A stretch of 51,329 bases of DNA, counting the filler, from Catajapyx aquilonaris (lineage: Eukaryota), in the NCBI GenBank assembly GCA_000934665.2. It is 2 parts of 2 records of this genome, joined end to end, with 100 filler letters (N's around TTAATTAATTAA, not from the genome) between each part and the next. Parts side by side here need not be neighbours in the genome. Positions count along the whole stretch, not along the records: positions 25,709 to 51,329 come from JYFJ02005331.1; 1 more part is not named here. The stretch is one strand, 5' to 3'. Under the pieces are notes generated by a model, which worked only from the letters and a program-made list of their open reading frames with translations, had not been told where the DNA came from and searched no databases. How positions within the stretch are numbered: the first letter of the stretch is position 1; each line of letters starts with the position of its first letter. Shown here piece by piece: positions 8,194 to 37,137 of this stretch. The translations under genes and the position numbers were made by a program.

Positions 8194-9216
8194 GGGTGCA
8201 GTTTAGAGCCGCAAAAGTCTTCCAGGTTTCTATATATTTTCTGAATCGACTCGATGAGATGAGTCGAATGACACTATTCCTAGTGTGCGGAAATGCTTGG
8301 TGCAAGAGTAATTGAATTTTGAAATTGCAAGTAATAACAATGAATAAATGAAAATAAACAAGTGTTCCTTTGTTGAAACAGTTTACTCCCATTGTTGAGT
8401 GAACGAATATCCATGGTAATTTTAAACGTAGTTTGGGGGTTGTGTGTTCGCAGAAATACTGTCCGCCTTGTGGTGGCGTAGATGTGGGTGTTGCGTGATG
8501 TGGATGTGGCAAAGCCACAATAACGTTCGTTGGCCTGCGGCGCCACAAGACGGACAGTAAATGTTGCGGATACAGAAACCCACAATAAGCGCCCAGCTCC
8601 GCTATCGCTCCGCAAAAACTAAAAATATCACGCACAGGCGACGTACCGTGCCTGGCAGGGCCACAAGACGGACAGTACTGGTGCGGTCACACCAACGCCT
8701 CACAGATATAACACCAACACAATCAGAGTGGGGCATGCCTTGAGTAAAACCTTAGGATTCATTTTGTTGGCGGGCAAGAGGCCTCGATCAGTGGCCCTGG
8801 AGATACCAAGCAACCTCCCTCATTACTTCCAGGAAGGCTTGCCCAATTATTCCTGATAAGCACCGATGCAATGCCTCGGCCATGGACGCTCCTGAATGAG
8901 GTTAAATTAAACTCCTACACTCTCGTTCTATGTCCAACGAACCAAGAACAACCGTTTATTTACATCATTCAGCATCCCTCACAGCACGTTTCCACGGAGA
9001 ATCACCTGACGCAACAATGGGAGTGAACAGTCTCAACAAATGAACACTTGTTTACTTTCATTTTATTCATTGTTATTACATGCAATTTCAAAATTCAATT
9101 ACTCTTGAACCAAGCATTTCCGCACACTAGGAATAGTGTCATTCGACTCAGCTCATCTCGTAGATTCAGAAAATGTATAAAAACCTGCAACATTTTTGCG
9201 GCTCTAAACTGCACCC
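8194..9216. mobile_element. About 1 kb non-autonomous DNA transposon with about 200-bp TIRs (PIF/Harbinger-like ends)
   Basis: 8194-8397 is the reverse complement of about 9012-9216 (GGGTGCAGTTTAGAGCCGC... / ...GCGGCTCTAAACTGCACCC). TAA on the left only; no transposase ORF recognised inside. Confidence 0.8.
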
Positions 9217-21183: not shown

Positions 21184-24100
21184 ATGGCAACTTCCAAAGC
21201 AGCGATTCTCGATCTCGACGTGAGTAATTATTTCCCAGTTAATCAGGCTGTTCAATTACTTCGCACTCGTTTAATAAGCATTCTTGTAACTCGTAGGTTG
21301 ATGTGCAGCGAGAAGCGGAAGCGCAGCTGCAGTTCCAGGGTAAGGCGGATGGGTTACGTTGGCCAGTGACATGTCATTTTCATCATTTGTTCCATTTGCA
21401 GAGTTCTCGCCGTCGACATCGTCGTCAACGTCGCTTCCTTTGGGCCAGCAGCAGACGAGCGGGAAGCGGGAGCAGGTCATAAACTTCACATCGTTTCCAG
21501 ACACGCCAGGATCCGATGATGAGGATGCCGAGACACAGGTGAATGCTTAGCTGATGTCGTAGCGTCTTATTAGAGCAAATAAATGCACCAATGCATCAGG
21601 GGACGTTGTGGTCAATGTGCATATTAACTGACTAAGAAATACAGAAAATCTGGATGTTTGAGTCCGAGGACAAATGCATGCTTGACATTTACTGTACTTC
21701 ATGCTATTAAGAGCAAACCAGGACCACGTTTGGGGACAAAAAACCAATGAAGCTACGAGGGCCGTACTAAAATTATTTACAATATATTTTTTTGCCACAA
21801 TTACAGTGCCCATACAGGTCGGCAGATAGTCACACATTATAGATAGAATGCTCCTGGAGCCGAATGCACTGCCACTCATAGGTGTGTCAACGTCTCCAGG
21901 CCATCCAGGAACCACTTTTTGAGGGTGCGTGGCACCCACGACCGGACAACTGTGCACAATCAACAACGTAAACAACTGTCAACAGTGTCCTCGAAATGGC
22001 GTCGGCGAAGGGTTTTTTCTCATGGATCTGGGTTTGGGTGCTTCCATACCCACTGCACTCACCCGGCTTGGCCCCTTGTGACTTTCACCTTATCAGATCC
22101 ATGAAAAAATCTCCTTTGCCGATGCCATTTCGAGGACATTGTTGACTGTACGTAAGCAGTTGTCCGGGAGGGGGTGCGCGGAACCTCCAAAAAATGGTTC
22201 CTGGGGAGGCTGGAAAGGTTGACACACCCATGAATCCTGCTCATTCAGCTCCAGGAGGATTCTCTCGAGAAAGTGTGACTATCTGCCGACCGGTACGGGC
22301 ACGGTATTTGTGGCAAAAAAATAAATTGTGAATCATTTTAGTACGGCCCTCGTAGTTTTGACATTGCTCCTCGGTTCCATTATTCCAAGGTTGCTTACTG
22401 TGTTGCCCGGTCTCGTTAGCAGATCCCTGAACCATTTGTGTTGTCGAACCTGTGCGGCTTTGTTTGCCATTGTGAGCTCCCAAGAACTTCATGAGAGTGC
22501 ATTCATTTTGTGACATGTATGTCAGTGATAATTTAGCATTTTGAGCTAGTAGCAGTAGTATCGGCCAGTTGGGTTTGGTTGGAGGGAGAGTCTTATGGAT
22601 ACACTAAACAATCTCTTATTCAAATATCTGGGAACCAAAAAGCAATAGACACTTCCTCCTCAGTCATGTTGGTGTGGTCCCCATGGATGCCACTTGTTCC
22701 TCCTTTCTAATCAACTGCTATAAATAATGAGAAGCAATACGATAAACAAATTATCCGAACGCTGGAACAATCAAGAGTGACTCTTAACACCCATCTCTAA
22801 ACATTGTTCCAGGGTTCGGCTCCAAGCGTGCCTGTAAAGCGAGCAAGATTCTTTTCATGGAAGTTGCGTCCCATTCTGGATGACAAATATACAGACCTGC
22901 CACTCATCATTGAGGCATATGCTGCTAAAATTATAGACCCTAAGGAGACATCAGCACTCATGAAGCAACTTAACAAAATCATGCCAATTCCTAGCCTGCT
23001 GCACTTGAAGAGGGTTAAGAATCTTTATGATGGAAAGGTAGTGCTAGAAAGGAGTGTTTTGTTATGCCTGAAAGACTCTGAGAGATCTGCCCCTTGCCTG
23101 GAAAAGTTGGGCTTAGACACAACAGGATTAGATGTGGAGTCAGTTATGACAGTTTCAGTTCCTGGAAAACCACCATTAACTCGCTCCCAGTTTGAGCAAT
23201 GCAACAAACTGTGGCCATGCAATTTTCGGGAGGATAAGGAGTTAGAAGCAACTTTGCTGAGCAGCAGGTTCAGCTCTTTGGATCTGGTGACCATGGAGCA
23301 GCACATGGCACTTGCTTTGGAAATTGCAAAGGAAAGTGCAGCAGGCATTGCAGCTGCAATATTTGACTCTTCTGGCAGCCTAGTTTGCAGAGTTGCAGAC
23401 AGGCGTGAGTCACATCCTTTGCAGCATGCAACGATGGTTGCTCTTGATGAAGTTTCAGCACTTCGAGGTGGTGGGTCCTGGAGCACAAATAAAGTGACGC
23501 CTGAAGAGAGAAAAGACACTGATTACTTATGTACACGGTATGATGTGTATGTTACACGTGAACCATGCTTGATGTGCGCAATGGCATTAACACATTCAAG
23601 GGTTGGCCGTGTCATGTTTGGATGCACGAGCGCAAATGGAGGTCTTGGAAGCGTCACCAAACTGCATTGCCTGGGTGGGATTAATCACCGTTATGAGGCA
23701 TTTGGAGGCATTTTGGAGGCAGAATGTGCCAAAATTTGTCAGAAATAAATGGTTTTTAAGTTTTATTCTCATTGATTTTGTATTAGTTAACAGTCCCGCA
23801 CACAGTGTCCATAAGCAACATTTTACAGCATCCTAGATTTTTAAATTCTTCGGCAACTTTTATCGTACTAGTATGCATACATTATGCACAGTTACTGTGA
23901 TCTTTTATATTTGTAGCATATGTTAAAAGAATAAGTGGTGGAGGAACTGGTAATTACTAGGCCATATTGCCCATATAGCTAGGTGAGTGAAATGCTAAAT
24001 TGAGTGAAATTATGAGTAAAATTTACATTAATTAACTGGTCTTACTGACAGAATGTTGTACTTTTTTCCCAATGGTTCTTTTTTTGTTGTTGCAGCTTTT

Positions 24101-25608: not shown

Positions 25609-25708
25609 NNNNNNNNNNNNNNNNNNNNNNNNNNNNNNNNNNNNNNNNNNNNTTAATTAATTAANNNNNNNNNNNNNNNNNNNNNNNNNNNNNNNNNNNN
25701 NNNNNNNN
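25609..25708. other. Artificial assembly spacer
   Basis: Exactly 44 N + TTAATTAATTAA (25653-25664, stops in all six frames) + 44 N = 100 bp. Confidence 0.97.
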
Positions 25709-30476: not shown

Positions 30477-32277
30477 GTAAGTAGCCTTTTCCTAGTTTTG
30501 CAGGCCTGATAAAGAGCTCAATTTTCCACCTTGTCTGCGTAGAACACGCAAACCTGAAAAGGGACCACTTCCTCTAGGGCTTTTATTCGTCTTATCCTTG
30601 ATCGATTCGCCTGAAGGTTCTCGGGACATACACACATTGTGCACAAAAGTCGGTCCGATCTCTAGTCCATGATAAACACTTCTTACCGACAACCAAGTGC
30701 CTAATTACACCCGAGTGGATTAACTATTGTAGTTATCACTGGAGCGGCTGCCATCAGGGGTATAGAATGAGCGAGGGTGACCCCCAACTGTCGCAAAGGT
30801 CCCTCAGAATGAGATTTGGGGTGAAGGGGCGTGGAGTGAACATGGTTGTCTCTGCTGATGGGATTGAAGCCCCCGGATCATGTGGGGTCCTCACCCTGGG
30901 TGGCAGGCCTGGAAATAGGCCTAGCCGGTTTGTAATTATCAGGCCTGTCAACCAGTGCTGTTTGTGGGAGAGTTGAAAAAGGGGTGGGAGGGAAGGGAAT
31001 CAAGGGTCTCGCCGGTGGTCAGCTGACCTTGCCTTCTGTCGTAGCCAACACTGTAGGAAGTCAACGAGTTTACTACACCAAAAGTACAATATACTGTAGC
31101 TGTGTGTTATTTTTAATGTCCAACACAAGTAATTAAATATATAAATACTGTAATACAAAAGAAAAACATTCATTGTGTTGGCTGCTTTGTTGGTTTTGGG
31201 GATATGCATGATAGATGAACGGTTTCTTTTAGTAGAAGGCTGTTCATTTAAAAATAAGAACATTCAAGATGTGTCCTGTCGATGGCTTTTGTACAGACTT
31301 ATAATTTTTATTATAAGCGCAAAACCGGCCTTGCAAATACTTGAGTCGAAATTATTAGTTAAAATTACTCAAATTAAATTACTGTACGGCTGGCTGAAAA
31401 AGGTGTAATTGAATAAAGTAGGCCATGACATTATCCAACGAATGATAGAATTATGCAGTAGAAGTTAGGTTTACTTCGTGCGTCAGTTAGTGTCTAAGCT
31501 TATGACGTCAAGTAGGCATCAACAGTTATTATATGGACGTGTGGTATTTAATGACCTTACCACTCCTTGCTCATGGTGATATGACGTAGGTTTTATTCGA
31601 GTGCAATTGGTTACGGAGAAATAACTGTCCACGTCAGGGGAGGGCCTATATAATTTAAGCATATGTCTAGATGACATCGTAACATAACTGATTTCTATTT
31701 AAATTGTTCTGAGATACTTTTCATTGATATCAATTAGTTTTACAGCTGCTTCATAATTATGAAATATTGTGTCAAAGAATGAGATCTTTTTATTAGAACT
31801 TGCTTCAGAGAGAGAGAGAGACTTGTAAGCAAGTTTCCAGATCCAGAATTGTTGAGCACATGCTGTTTCTGCAGATTCGGACGTAAGCAGGATTTTGTAA
31901 GGTCGGACAAAGAGTCTGTGACGGACGGACCACAAGTTGTCAGTGGGTCGGTGTGCAGGAGGGAGACGACTGGTCTGGTCATACAGGGCCGGTCCCCTGC
32001 TGGGTTGAAAGAGGAGGCCTAGGAGGGTGAGAACCGGGACAAGCACTAAGCTAACAAAGCTACCCGCCGAGACCATTGTCAGCATCCTTGTCAGCTCTAG
32101 TGACAAAGGACAGCCGCACCGGCAAACAAGAGGGGGCGATGGGATAGGGGGAAGGGGGGGAAGGCACGTCGCGCCTGTACGAAAATGCTGTGTGCAAACT
32201 TTATTCCTCTTGATTTACCACTGATGAGCCACTTGTGATGGCACCCATTTCATGCCTCGCTTGTTGGTACATTTCAG

Positions 32278-34082
32278 GAGCACCCCGGTCTAAGAGGGAC
32301 GCCGCTGGCGATGCTGGCGGCGCAGTGCAACAAGCTCTCCAGCAAGAGCCCTCCACCTCTTGCTGACGCCGCCGTGGGCAAAGGCTTCCACCCGTGGAAG
32401 AAGACTGCGGGTGGGATGGGCATGGGCGTTGGTGTTGGAGTGTCCGTGTCCTCCTCCATGCCGCCGACGCTGTCCCTGGCTGCAGGACATCAAAGAAACC
32501 CGGTGACCTCATCGGTGGCATCGACGGGATGCACCTACAACCGATCCGTCGTAACCTCCGCTTGTCCCTCCGCACCTTACGCACCTGACCTCTACTTCAC
32601 CCCAGGGGCAGGACCCCCGGGTGGCCATCATCACGGAGGCGGTTCAGTCGGAGTCAATTCAGGACATTCTCAGGCTGACCTAGGAAAGGTAAGTGTCATT
32701 GACAGTGCATTCAGGACACCTGGACACGTTTTCCATTTTGTTCTATCACACCCACTATAGGTGGCTGCAGCGGAAGGGGCAGCTGCGGCGGCACACTTAG
32801 GAAGCATGAGCAGCATGTACTCCCGTGTGGCTGCTGCAGCTGCGGCGTCGGCTGCGTCGGCAGCGGCACACCAATACGAGTCATGGCCGTTCAACGCGAT
32901 GCCGGCTGCATCGGCCCACTCGGCCGGTATCAAGCCGGAGGTGAACTCGCTCAATTCCACCACGGCTGCTTGGTGGGACATGCACTCGGCTGCGGCTGCT
33001 GCAGGAGGCTGGCTGGACATGAGCGGGGCCGCCCCTGGGCTGCCCGCCATGTCGGCTGCCGGTATGCACACACCCAACTACCCATCAGACTATCCCTCGG
33101 CGCTATCCCATTCCCTGGCCGCTGCTGCCTCTTCACCGCACCTACTGTCGTCAGGACAGCACCTTCTGCAGGACACCTACAAGTCTATGCTCCCAGGGGC
33201 ACAAGGGGTTCCCGCATCCGTCGCATCTCCCTTTGGCCTTAGTCAGCCCTCACTGCCTCAGGTTCCCTCTCCAAGGTCAGTATTGTTGATGTTTTGAAGG
33301 TGCAGAAACCGGCTAAAACGTCGCACCAGAATTACACTATCACTCTATGATCAAGTTTCAAATGATTCTGGAGCTACCCCAGCCGTTTTCTGAACCGTTA
33401 ATGTACTTAGGAGGATGGGTACAGGACCAGACGCTTGAGCCTGGCCCTGTAACCATCCTTCGGTGTGTGTGTCTGCCTGGGTGTTTGGGTGACGCACCTC
33501 CGACGTACGTACGGTCGGTCCCATAGACGTAACCCGCACGTTGCGACGCGTAGGTCGCAGAGGCGCTACACAGGCCGAGCGACGTGCGACTGCCCCAACT
33601 GCCAGGAAGCTGAGCGACTTGGCCCTGCCGGCGCACACCTGAGGAAGAAGAACATCCACAGCTGCCACATCCCAGGCTGCGGGAAGGTGTACGGCAAGAC
33701 ATCTCATTTGAAGGCTCATCTGAGGTGGCACACAGGCGAACGGCCATTCGTGTGCAACTGGCTCTTTTGCGGGAAACGATTCACCCGCTCCGACGAGCTG
33801 CAACGTCACCTCCGTACGCACACGGGAGAGAAGCGCTTTGCTTGTCCTGTTTGCAACAAGCGCTTCATGCGCTCCGACCACCTGTCTAAACATGTCAAGA
33901 CGCACAACGGCAACGGCGGCGGAAAGAAGAGCGGATCAGAGAGCTGCAGCGACTCGGAGGACAACAGCCAGTCCGAGCCGCCTAGTGTCAGTTCGCCTGC
34001 CTCTGTCAACACGCCCCCCTTATCGCAACAGACTCTCGAGCCATCACCCAATTCCGTCGTCGACATCAAACCCGCTGTCTGA
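32278..34082 (+). CDS. Sp6-9: Sp6-9 (Sp8/Sp9-like) zinc-finger transcription factor; upstream exon unresolved
   Basis: Exons 32278-32688, 32761-33275, 33554-34082. Sp box [34 protein letters not shown], Btd box [14 protein letters not shown], three C2H2 fingers ([73 protein letters not shown]). Confidence 0.95.
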
Positions 34083-35000
34083 ACTCATATAAAAAAGCGA
34101 TAGAAACGCGAACGAACGCACCCGCGCGCATTCCCTTTCTCATGCATCATCATCTCTATCTCTCGTCCCTTTCTCTCACCTCTCCTGCTCGTTCGTGCGA
34201 ATCATGCTGCTCGATTCACCCCAAATAAAAGGCTTGTTCAGGGGCCCTTACGAGCGCTCTCGCGTGACGTCACGCGGATGAGTCAGCTGCGACTGATGCT
34301 CATATTCTTTTCGGAACACCGTCATTGACAGCTTTATTCAGGCACCAGTGCTCTAGAGGCGTTTCATATTACTGTCGTATATGGGGTCGTAATTGACGCA
34401 AGTTTGTGCTCATTTTTATTCTGTAAAACAGGACAGAATTCAAAATTTTGTAGTTCATTTTATATGATACACAGCGAGGTGAGAAGTCAGGTGTCAGCAA
34501 CTTGCAGCTGTACATAATATCAGTGGATGTCTCCAGTGCTTGAATTAATCGAGATTATGCTCAGCATTGAATTTCAAAATATAGTCGGCTTGATGGCCAT
34601 TCCTAGTCCAACATAATTTACGCTATTCTGTGCTCAGCATTTTAAAATATATTTAAAAAATATAATAAATGGAGAATGTGATGTCACGCGACCGAGCGTT
34701 CGTGCGGAGACTAAACTCGATAGAATCATTTGGATAACAAAACTTTTGCTTAAATTGGGGTCAATGTGCAGTCACTTAATTGATGATACCAGTCCACCGT
34801 ACTGTGGAGTGTAGACCTGGCATTCTTTAGCGTTTTTTGTTTTTTTTTGAAAGCACATAACCTCATTTTGGTAGACATCTACGTGACTCCTCGATGACAT
34901 ATATACAAAAAAAATCATTAAAAAGGGGACCTGAGAGGCAGGTCGCACATGGAAAGCAGCACCAGCAAAGCAGACATTTCTTTTTCAAATAAGTGCGTGT

Positions 35001-35063
35001 GTGTGACTTGACAATATTGGATAGACGGTCGGAGCGCGTGAAGCGTCTGTTGCAGGCAAGGCA
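35001..35063 (-). other. Inverted degenerate copy of Sp/KLF zinc finger 3 coding sequence
   Basis: Minus strand reads CLACNRRFTRSDRLSNIVKSH versus [21 protein letters not shown] at 33843-33905; 47/63 nt identical with no gaps (manual count). Confidence 0.75.
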
Positions 35064-36839
35064 GGTCTACACTTCAAATCCTATGTACGGAATTGTATTG
35101 GATCGCCCTGACTCTTTGGGCCGTGTGGTGCTCACCCAGCCGGGTCTTTCCAGAGACATGCCATATCGCTCAACAGTATTGTCAACGTTGTCTCTCCTAA
35201 CAATGTTCTTGTGTAATCCTCCCCACCTGAAAACTTGATCCCGGTGTACAAAGTACAACATTCAACGATATATCAAACATCTCTGGAAAGACTTTTCATC
35301 CCTTGTGCCTCCACCATTTACCTCCACACTTTTGTTGGGCCCCGAATAAAATAACAAAAAATATGGTCTTTCGGGTTAGTCATTGCTGAGTAATCCGAAG
35401 GTGTAATGGGCGCCATTATTTAAAGCGTTCCTTGTCCGGTTCATAATTTGTAAAATCATTTTGAGAAAAAAAAAAAATATTAATAAGCGACCAGGCCGTG
35501 CCTTTTGTAGGCTCAGAAACGAACTCCTGTCCCTCCCAACAATACCCTGATTCCTGATTGGACTCAGGGAAAAAATAGGACTCACAAAAATGGCATTTTC
35601 TTTCTTTTCCCCTCCCTCCCCTCTGCAACTACACATCACGTGACACTTCTTTTTTTTCTGTGTGTGAGTGACAGTGAGTGTGTGCCGACGACGATGAGGT
35701 GACGAAAGTGACGTCACTCGTCCTCCCCATGCAGTGTGCGACACGTGACCGTGACATTGGTGTTTGCCCTGATTGTTGTGGGGAGGAAGAAGAAGCAGGA
35801 TTTTTTTTTTAGTGCCATGGAATTTCACTTTCTGTGATCTACTTCGGTTGTACGCATATTTCTCTTATAGCCTATTGTACATTATCGGGAAGCCACTTGT
35901 ATAGATTATTATTCTACTGCATCAGGTGTACAGGTATGGAGTGCACACTCTTTGCCTTTTTGATTATTATAATTATTACAATTAATTTGGCGGCAGCAGT
36001 TTCATGCTGTCTTCTCCCTTTGTGTTAGTTTTAAAGAAAGAAAAAACGCTAGTTAGGAAAACTCTTCAAGAAAACCATTGTGTATAATTGTTACGAATAG
36101 GTTTTCAAGACGATAAACCAACAACGGGGTAAAATTATTCCCACGATCTTTTTTTCTCTTTTCTTCCCCATCTCGTCCTTCCAGTTCATTCGCAGATCCA
36201 AATGGAAGATTTCTGGGGCTCAATTAGGACCCCAAATGAGCGCGCCAATGAGATTACCACTGTTGCCAGCTGCAGCCAGGTAGTTGCCAAATGAAGCAGA
36301 AGGGATGTCGTGTCCACATGTGGAAGCAATCATCATTTGCATGGGGCATGAGATCATGTCTAAATAATTTTCCATAAGCACACTAACAAAAAAGAAATCT
36401 CGCATTTTAAATATACCCTGGATTATTATTTCAAGGCCAAGATTTTAAGTGAATGACATCAGTACGATTATGTTCTTTGTCTTAGTTTTTGTCTCAGGTT
36501 AAGTTTATTTGTGATGTCATTTATCTCTGAAATTGCCAGGTTGATGAGTCTGAGCGAGCCATTCGGATTGATTTACCTGTTACTACCCTGGAATGTCTCG
36601 ATTCTTACACCTTTGTCACCCTCAGAACGACAGGCTGCGATGTTTTGAGAGATTGCTCATGGAAGGGCTCTTCCTTTTGTAGGGCAATTTGTACCCGCAA
36701 ACCAGCACATTCCTGGGCTATTGATGGCTTTTCCGATTCTAGGAACACAAGAGAATGACCCATTCTATTTTCGTGGTTGTTTGTATTTAAGCTCTTGTTA
36801 AGACGCTATTTTTATGGTCGTTATTTTGATTACCGTTCT

Positions 36840-37137
36840 TATAAACATGGGTTATTGTCCATTTATATTTAGAGGGCAGCTCCCACCGACCGCCTAATCT
36901 GAATTCCACCCACTCCGGATTCCCATCGCGATAACTGAGTACTATATGAAGCTCGGAAAGACGTGGAGTTGTCATACGTATATCATTATCATAAGTAAGG
37001 CATGACAGCTCTGCTCTTTCCAAGCTTCATATAGCCCTTAGTTATCGCGGTGGGAATCCCGAGTAGGTGGAATTCAGATTATAGGCAGTAGGTGGGAGCT
37101 GCCTTTCACAGACAGATAGACAATAGCCATGTTTATA
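36840..37137. mobile_element. Fold-back (hairpin) MITE-like element
   Basis: tataaacatgggttattgtc...ggcagctcccacc...tctgaattccacc pairs with ggtggaattcaga...ggtgggagctgcc...gacaatagccatgtttata; arms about 135 bp, short loop near 36980-37000. Confidence 0.8.

Follow-up and report, generated by a model that had tools for sequence, protein, structure and literature searches.

The 3′ region of a Catajapyx aquilonaris gene that we assign to Sp6-9 contains a segment whose sequence is most simply explained as zinc finger 3 of the same gene, copied from template in inverted orientation. The feature is real, and its origin is fairly clear. We give a probability of about 0.5 to a neutral history, that is, to an old copying or repair scar that has been drifting since. 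Long ago, a templated copying event or a repair slip, probably involving template switching, would have left a single-copy, non-coding inverted finger-3 copy, which has presumably drifted without selection. A transcript reaching beyond position 35063 would snap back into an imperfect duplex of about 60 bp. ADAR editing there, most plausibly a K>R change at A33859, would then arise only incidentally and hardly affect DNA binding. The stretch analysed (the window; 51,329 nucleotides from assembly GCA_000934665.2) consists of two joined parts, and the part with the Sp gene is record JYFJ02005331.1 (positions 25,709–51,329). The features are collected in Table 1.

Aligned without gaps, 33843–33905 and the reverse complement of 35001–35063 agreed at 47 of 63 positions, as the sequence-only reading of this DNA had reported. 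Its count of wobbles was also reproduced: eight of the 16 mismatches turn into G-U pairs in a plus-strand fold. The other eight are four A·C or C·A oppositions (33847, 33859, 33880, and 33881) and four transversions (33890, 33891, 33892, and 33900). The inverted repeat as detected spans 64 nt at 75%, with 1093 nt separating the arms. Chance complementarity was rejected and has a negligible probability, since all 63-nt diagonals of the window averaged 15.6 matches (SD 3.5) and the second-best inverted match reached 31/63. The copy is sharply bounded at finger 3, covering the codons of that finger from its first Cys to its last His. Similarity to finger 2, the linker, or the tail was sought beyond the arms, and the flank extensions were not significant (P = 0.08 and 0.30; 0.47 and 0.81 in a second test). 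No indels separate the arms at 25% divergence. In a genome search that skipped common words, 35001–35063 matched only itself.

Table 1. Features of the Sp gene and of its 3′ region, in window coordinates.
Feature	Position	Strand	Remarks
Putative coding exon	32278..32688	+	N-terminal conserved motif EHP...PLAMLAAQC...KGFHPWKK; ORF 32239-32760, ag/gt boundaries; upstream start-codon exon not located
Putative coding exon	32761..33275	+	Ala/Ser-rich (24 protein letters not shown); ORF 32761-33297, splice sites read from the sequence
Last coding exon	33554..34082	+	Btd box, three C2H2 fingers, acidic Ser-rich tail, stop TGA 34080-34082; Pfam zf-C2H2
5′ arm	33843..33905	+	Finger-3 codons, first Cys through last His
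A33859, best predicted ADAR site	33859	+	5′-AAG, opposite C, 3′ G opposite U, then 20 unbroken pairs; K>R
A33880, second A·C site	33880	+	H>R at helix +3; 2x2 internal loop, CAC triplet
Proximal AATAAA 1, candidate signal	34224..34229	+	Sequence motif
Helix B, nested, predicted	34249..34704	+	Arms 34249-34274 and 34677-34704; 11+15 bp, 2-nt bulge, −48.3 kcal/mol
Proximal AATAAA 2, candidate signal	34664..34669	+	Sequence motif
3′ arm	35001..35063	+	Non-coding inverted finger-3 copy, 919-981 nt past the stop
Distal AATAAA, candidate signal	35345..35350	+	Sole AATAAA between the copy and 37500

By its sequence, the host gene falls within the arthropod Sp6-9 clade, nearer to Sp6-9/Sp8 than to Sp1-4 or Sp5/btd. 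The tree forks were poorly supported, so sequence identity and the upstream motifs carry this assignment. The product of the last exon was 98% identical to a Gryllus Sp protein over 117 columns. The rows nearest to the host protein were Gryllus, Tigriopus Sp8-like, Ctenocephalides Sp8-like, Pycnogonum Sp6/9, and Marmota Sp8. The N-terminal motif of the first listed exon is also present in a named insect Sp protein (P0155), and joining the second exon to the last one yields QVPSPRSQRRY, as in P0152 and P0155. At 33555–33908, a CDCPNC motif precedes three C2H2 fingers, placing a Btd box directly ahead of them; both elements belong to the Sp family description in PMC3087555. The remaining Sp genes of the genome lie at other loci (L003 and L004). 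Three KLF-like genes (L006–L008) share one contig, C26, and two of them have almost identical finger-3 DNA.

The sequence-only reading had named a better match to another Sp/KLF paralog, a duplicate remnant, as the finding that would speak against it. The 3′ arm could indeed be the remnant of another Sp/KLF or C2H2 gene on the minus strand that is fortuitously complementary to finger 3; read on that strand, it gives a finger-like peptide without a stop that keeps 12 of 21 residues. Distant homologs also matched it nearly as well as the host gene did, the best of 59 distinct finger-3 sequences reaching 46/63. We nevertheless regard this origin as very improbable. Paralogs matched at no more than 39/63 (24 other zinc-finger loci among 208 matches, including all seven Sp/KLF-like ones), and the host finger matched at 47/63. 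In addition, a stop precedes the arm on the minus strand, the first zinc-binding His is lost, and the flanks hold no finger-2 or linker remnant. The best donor thus appears to be nearby sequence in reverse complement, as a template-switch origin requires. The copy is probably old, because distant homologs match it almost as well as its own gene, both over all positions and at third positions, where the own gene agrees at 13/21 and several distant homologs do equally well or better (at most 14).

The sequence-only reading had supposed that a long 3′ UTR or a nascent RNA could fold back on the exon. In the predicted fold of 33780–35120 (1341 nt), all 55 pairable positions were paired with probabilities of 0.85–1.0. 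A longer fold (33540–35400) retained the core from 33852 onward, with the first nine bases pairing elsewhere. The sense duplex thus constitutes an extended, imperfect same-strand complementarity to the exon (55/63 paired, −89 kcal/mol). Pairing was best with the own gene; the 59 homologous fingers yielded at most 53/63 pairs and −85 kcal/mol.

The evidence on selection for this pairing was mixed. Mismatches occupy 8 of the 21 third codon positions and 8 of the 42 first and second positions. The 2:1 density fits independent drift, because both arms vary at silent sites and the copy alone elsewhere. The G-U excess among transitions (8/12) was not significant (P = 0.19–0.20), and the longest paired run of 20 gave P = 0.11–0.15. 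The stability of the duplex exceeded that of simulated neutral copies with the same differences (P = 0.009–0.025 in 2500 runs of the stricter null), and its strand asymmetry gave P = 0.04–0.05 against the same null. We prefer this null, which sets the wobble odds at 0.5; the looser one, with odds of 27/63, overstates significance and returned P = 0.001–0.011 for stability. The stability tests are post hoc, because the feature was chosen for its wobble-rich look. In strand asymmetry, the copy ranked 2 of 29 among comparable inverted repeats in 490 kb of the genome. Every G or U of the coding arm, 27 in all, is still paired.

Inverted copies were uncommon beside exons in the sample examined. Beside 26 other zinc-finger ORFs, none reached a score of 60 (best 52, as against 79 for the finger-3 copy). 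A gap-free scan of 50 Cys-loop exon stretches (from 90 matches), whose sensitivity to true editing-complementary sequences (ECSs) is uncalibrated, found none except four matches to an inverted gene pair. Two Cys-loop receptor paralogs lie in inverted orientation about 6.6–6.9 kb apart at C421:30500–37834 (L168).

Homologs were collected by a metagenome scan, keeping the best 80 of 489 confirmed loci; besides the window they form 56 groups, 23 of them with at least 1.2 kb downstream. The set comprises distant relatives and no close one. In a prokaryote genome collection, two loci matched and were uninformative. The finger-3 copy was present in none of these 23 groups, counted at species level, and inverted finger copies were absent from 22 of them, including all insect-like ones. 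We also looked for weaker, bulged partners by sliding 45-nt duplex energies over the 36 groups whose downstream sequence reached at least 900 nt. Only the window and L067 were clearly above the reverse-strand control.

The remaining group (L067 and L074) carries its own inverted copy of the finger 1-2 linker, pairing 1176–1220 with 2458–2502 in L067 and 277–321 with 1561–1605 in L074. The arms of L067 are predicted to pair, with 40 of 45 positions Watson-Crick, two G-U, and three U·U. L067 looks like a spliced transcript, because its reading frame, opening with Met, continues across the site where the window gene has an acceptor. Relative to L067, L074 has an A>G difference inside the arm (L067 position 1193), which changes E to G and TGERP to TGGRP. 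It is the sole non-synonymous change among the four coding differences between the two. The E>G change is unique among the 80 loci, and Gly occurs there in none of 147 matched proteins. A polymorphism or an assembly error is as likely a source as editing. Editing is doubtful at this site because the triplet is 5′-GAG, more favorable adenosines of the arm show no change, and many substitutions and indels separate the two contigs. The homolog search returned no further sequences of the L067 species, and its cluster has one member. Compared by sequence, the L067/L074 arm appears to be an independent, non-homologous analogue of the window copy.

With these results in hand, the neutral scar is favored by the codon-position pattern, the third-position identity, the G-U value of P ~0.2, and the absence in 22 of 23 groups. 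Against it stand the excess sense stability, the asymmetry rank, the lack of indels, the best pairing with the own gene, the rarity of such copies, and the second, independent Sp6-9 case.

The same duplex may instead be a selected editing-complementary sequence, with a long 3′ isoform or nascent RNA folding back and an ADAR2-type enzyme recoding finger 3. We consider this possible, with the odds against it. A33859 (K>R) would be the main target, with A33889 and A33898 (both K>R) as further possibilities and A33880 (H>R) as a less likely one. The choice of poly(A) site would turn this recoding on or off, and helix B, spanning the two proximal cleavage zones, could act as the gate. What such editing would need was in part found, namely the predicted duplex, the ADAR2-like genes, and no better paralog match. 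ADAR2-like deaminase exons with HAE, PCG, and SCSDK motifs occur at three loci, C3633, C855, and C396 (L121, L123, and L124). The C3633 exon matched human ADAR2 with E = 3e-27 and ADAR1 with 1e-13, and the C855 and C396 loci are close to one another in sequence. To our knowledge, insects have a single Adar. Other deaminase-like sequences were also seen. L107 reads as ADAT1-like, and an intronless ADAT3/Tad3-like ORF of 315 aa occupies 22801–23748 of the window, on the other part, beyond the N gap (25609–25708) from the contig of the Sp gene.

The adenosine contexts bear on this reading. As the sequence-only reading had noted, A33859 and A33880 both face C in the plus-strand fold. We take helix position +3 of finger 3 to be the His of the A33880 codon. 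This His is invariant (130 of 130 matched proteins), and Arg occurs naturally at the A33859-encoded Lys position in 6 of 130 finger-3 sequences. For human ADARs, a 3′ U-G wobble raises editing of 5′-AAG (PMC11994451; mostly measured with A paired to U), a 5′ G-U wobble suppresses 5′-UAN, and 5′-GAN is poorly edited (PMC11994451). By these rules, the context of A33859 would be favorable and that of A33880 unfavorable, the latter probably making a poor ADAR substrate. At A33888 (5′-UAA, K>E if edited), the 5′ G-U wobble is of the suppressive kind. Any edit of finger 3 would thus most likely be K>R. The sequence-only reading had gone on to propose altered DNA specificity through K>R and H>R. The A·C oppositions behind that proposal stood, but the specificity change fared poorly, K>R being conservative and off the recognition helix and the H>R site lying in a poor context. 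Of all that this reading proposed, a specificity switch by way of H>R has the weakest support. Neither K>R nor H>R finger-3 variants were found in the 80 homologous loci, which do not carry the finger-3 copy. At the level of search listings, openly licensed papers yielded no report of Sp6-9/Sp8 editing.

An editing guide would account for the excess stability of the sense-strand duplex and for the combination of 5′-AAG, A·C mismatch, and 3′ U-G wobble at A33859, alongside the suppressive wobble at A33888. The three ADAR2-like loci, the inverted finger copy of L067/L074 with its A>G in the L074 arm, and expression in the nervous system point the same way; arthropod Sp6-9 genes are expressed in limbs, brain, and nerve cord according to PMC3087555. 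On the other hand, the context argument is post hoc, just three of the eight wobbles adjoin an A, and K>R is a conservative change. The L074 site is a 5′-GAG, poor for ADARs (PMC11994451), with polymorphism or assembly error an equally good explanation. Because L067 duplicates another stretch, its arm cannot count as conservation of the window element, and one case in 23 groups fits a low background rate.

The three AATAAA signals of the sequence-only reading were found again, two ahead of the copy (34224 and 34664) and one beyond it (35345). An additional ATTAAA at 34917, absent from that reading, also precedes the copy. Helix B is nested in the long duplex's loop, and each of its arms is just 3′ of a proximal AATAAA. 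The zone immediately downstream of AATAAA is the normal cleavage site. We speculate that helix B, as modeled, could bias 3′-end choice to the long isoform. Of 300 dinucleotide shuffles, 4 attained its stability, but so did 23 of 157 real genomic windows, many with foldback repeats. The region of its 5′ arm (34248–34265) has a match at 17 of 18 positions in L046, L047, and L049 (E = 2.8), which in L047, an insect-like Sp6-9 locus, lies in the 3′ region at 9108–9125; no partner arm to this match was found. A further candidate, helix C (35142–35156 with 35280–35294), was dismissed, because it ranked outside the best inverted pairs and its sense-strand version is weaker. Downstream, window positions 36850–37128 form a nested inverted repeat with 67-nt arms (90% complementary) and 47-nt outer arms, of the foldback or MITE-like kind.

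In the insect-like Sp6-9 loci L042, L045, L050, and L056 (partly also L047 and L055), the TGA stop is followed by a conserved G+C-rich hairpin; the window gene is without it. This post-stop hairpin resembles the stop-codon readthrough signal of Drosophila Sp1.

Selection could also have kept the RNA duplex without any recoding. It would then alter mRNA stability, localization, or translation via Staufen-type proteins, or feed Dicer in small-hairpin form and damp its own gene. The excess sense stability and the nested helix B are consistent with such a role, as are 14 matches to dsrm, the dsRNA-binding domain, genome-wide (at domain level only), and the hairpin of the insect-like homologs indicates that the 3′ end of this gene can hold selected structure. 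Yet ribosomes unwind a coding arm, the longest unbroken stem measures 20 bp, the three Rfam matches were all well under the gathering score, and helix B is equalled by the genomic windows counted above. We judge this role improbable.

A broader proposal would unite the two Sp6-9 cases. Repeatedly, and in different phyla, genes of this clade would have gained an inverted copy of part of their zinc-finger coding sequence, placed some 1.1 kb into the 3′ region. The long isoform would thereby become an ADAR substrate, and the DNA-binding domain of a master regulator of limbs and nervous system would be recoded, by K>R in finger 3 here and by E>G in the linker in L074, with poly(A)-site use in control. 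We hold this to be unlikely. If the duplex is selected, the locus would offer an edit that is guided from the 3′ UTR, falls in a DNA-binding finger of a transcription factor acting in development, and can be switched through 3′-end choice. The editing reading predicts A33859 to be edited first, A33888 to be spared, and both to hold in the long isoform only. A neutral copy, by contrast, would be no more than a common scar of copying, and a reminder that proof from RNA or from comparison is needed for wobble-rich inverted exon copies.

Several known systems can be set beside the finger-3 copy. The short-range class of template-switch mutations involves jumps shorter than 1.1 kb. Template switching produces reverse-complement copies, as described in PMC7954356 (see also PMC8794818). 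Like such mutations, the finger-3 copy is short, single, sharply bounded, and inverted from nearby sequence; unlike the short-range ones, it implies a jump of 1.1 kb, and its switch points are unreconstructable without an outgroup. The hairpin RNAs of Drosophila that yield endo-siRNAs are separate non-coding transcripts with longer stems. The window element shares with them a wobble-rich inverted repeat of gene-derived sequence, but one of its arms is the gene's own coding sequence and its longest clean stem is 20 bp.

The GluA2 Q/R and R/G sites are ADAR recoding sites with an ECS. In general, the ECSs of ADAR recoding sites are cis-acting partners that fold back on the exon (PMC11994451). 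The finger-3 copy differs from them in that its partner lies past the stop and is not intronic, its target is a transcription-factor DNA-binding finger, and it is a sequence-level candidate, an ECS being defined by editing and conservation. It resembles them in that it is predicted to pair imperfectly with a coding exon, through a duplex containing wobbles and A·C mismatches, in a genome that holds ADAR2-like genes. The ant C2H2 zinc-finger gene Aech_08485 undergoes a K432R recoding, shown by RNA data, downstream of its finger domain (PMC4200514). The Sp6-9 sites, by comparison, lie inside finger 3 and are predicted only; as in the ant gene, the change would be a K>R in an arthropod zinc-finger protein.
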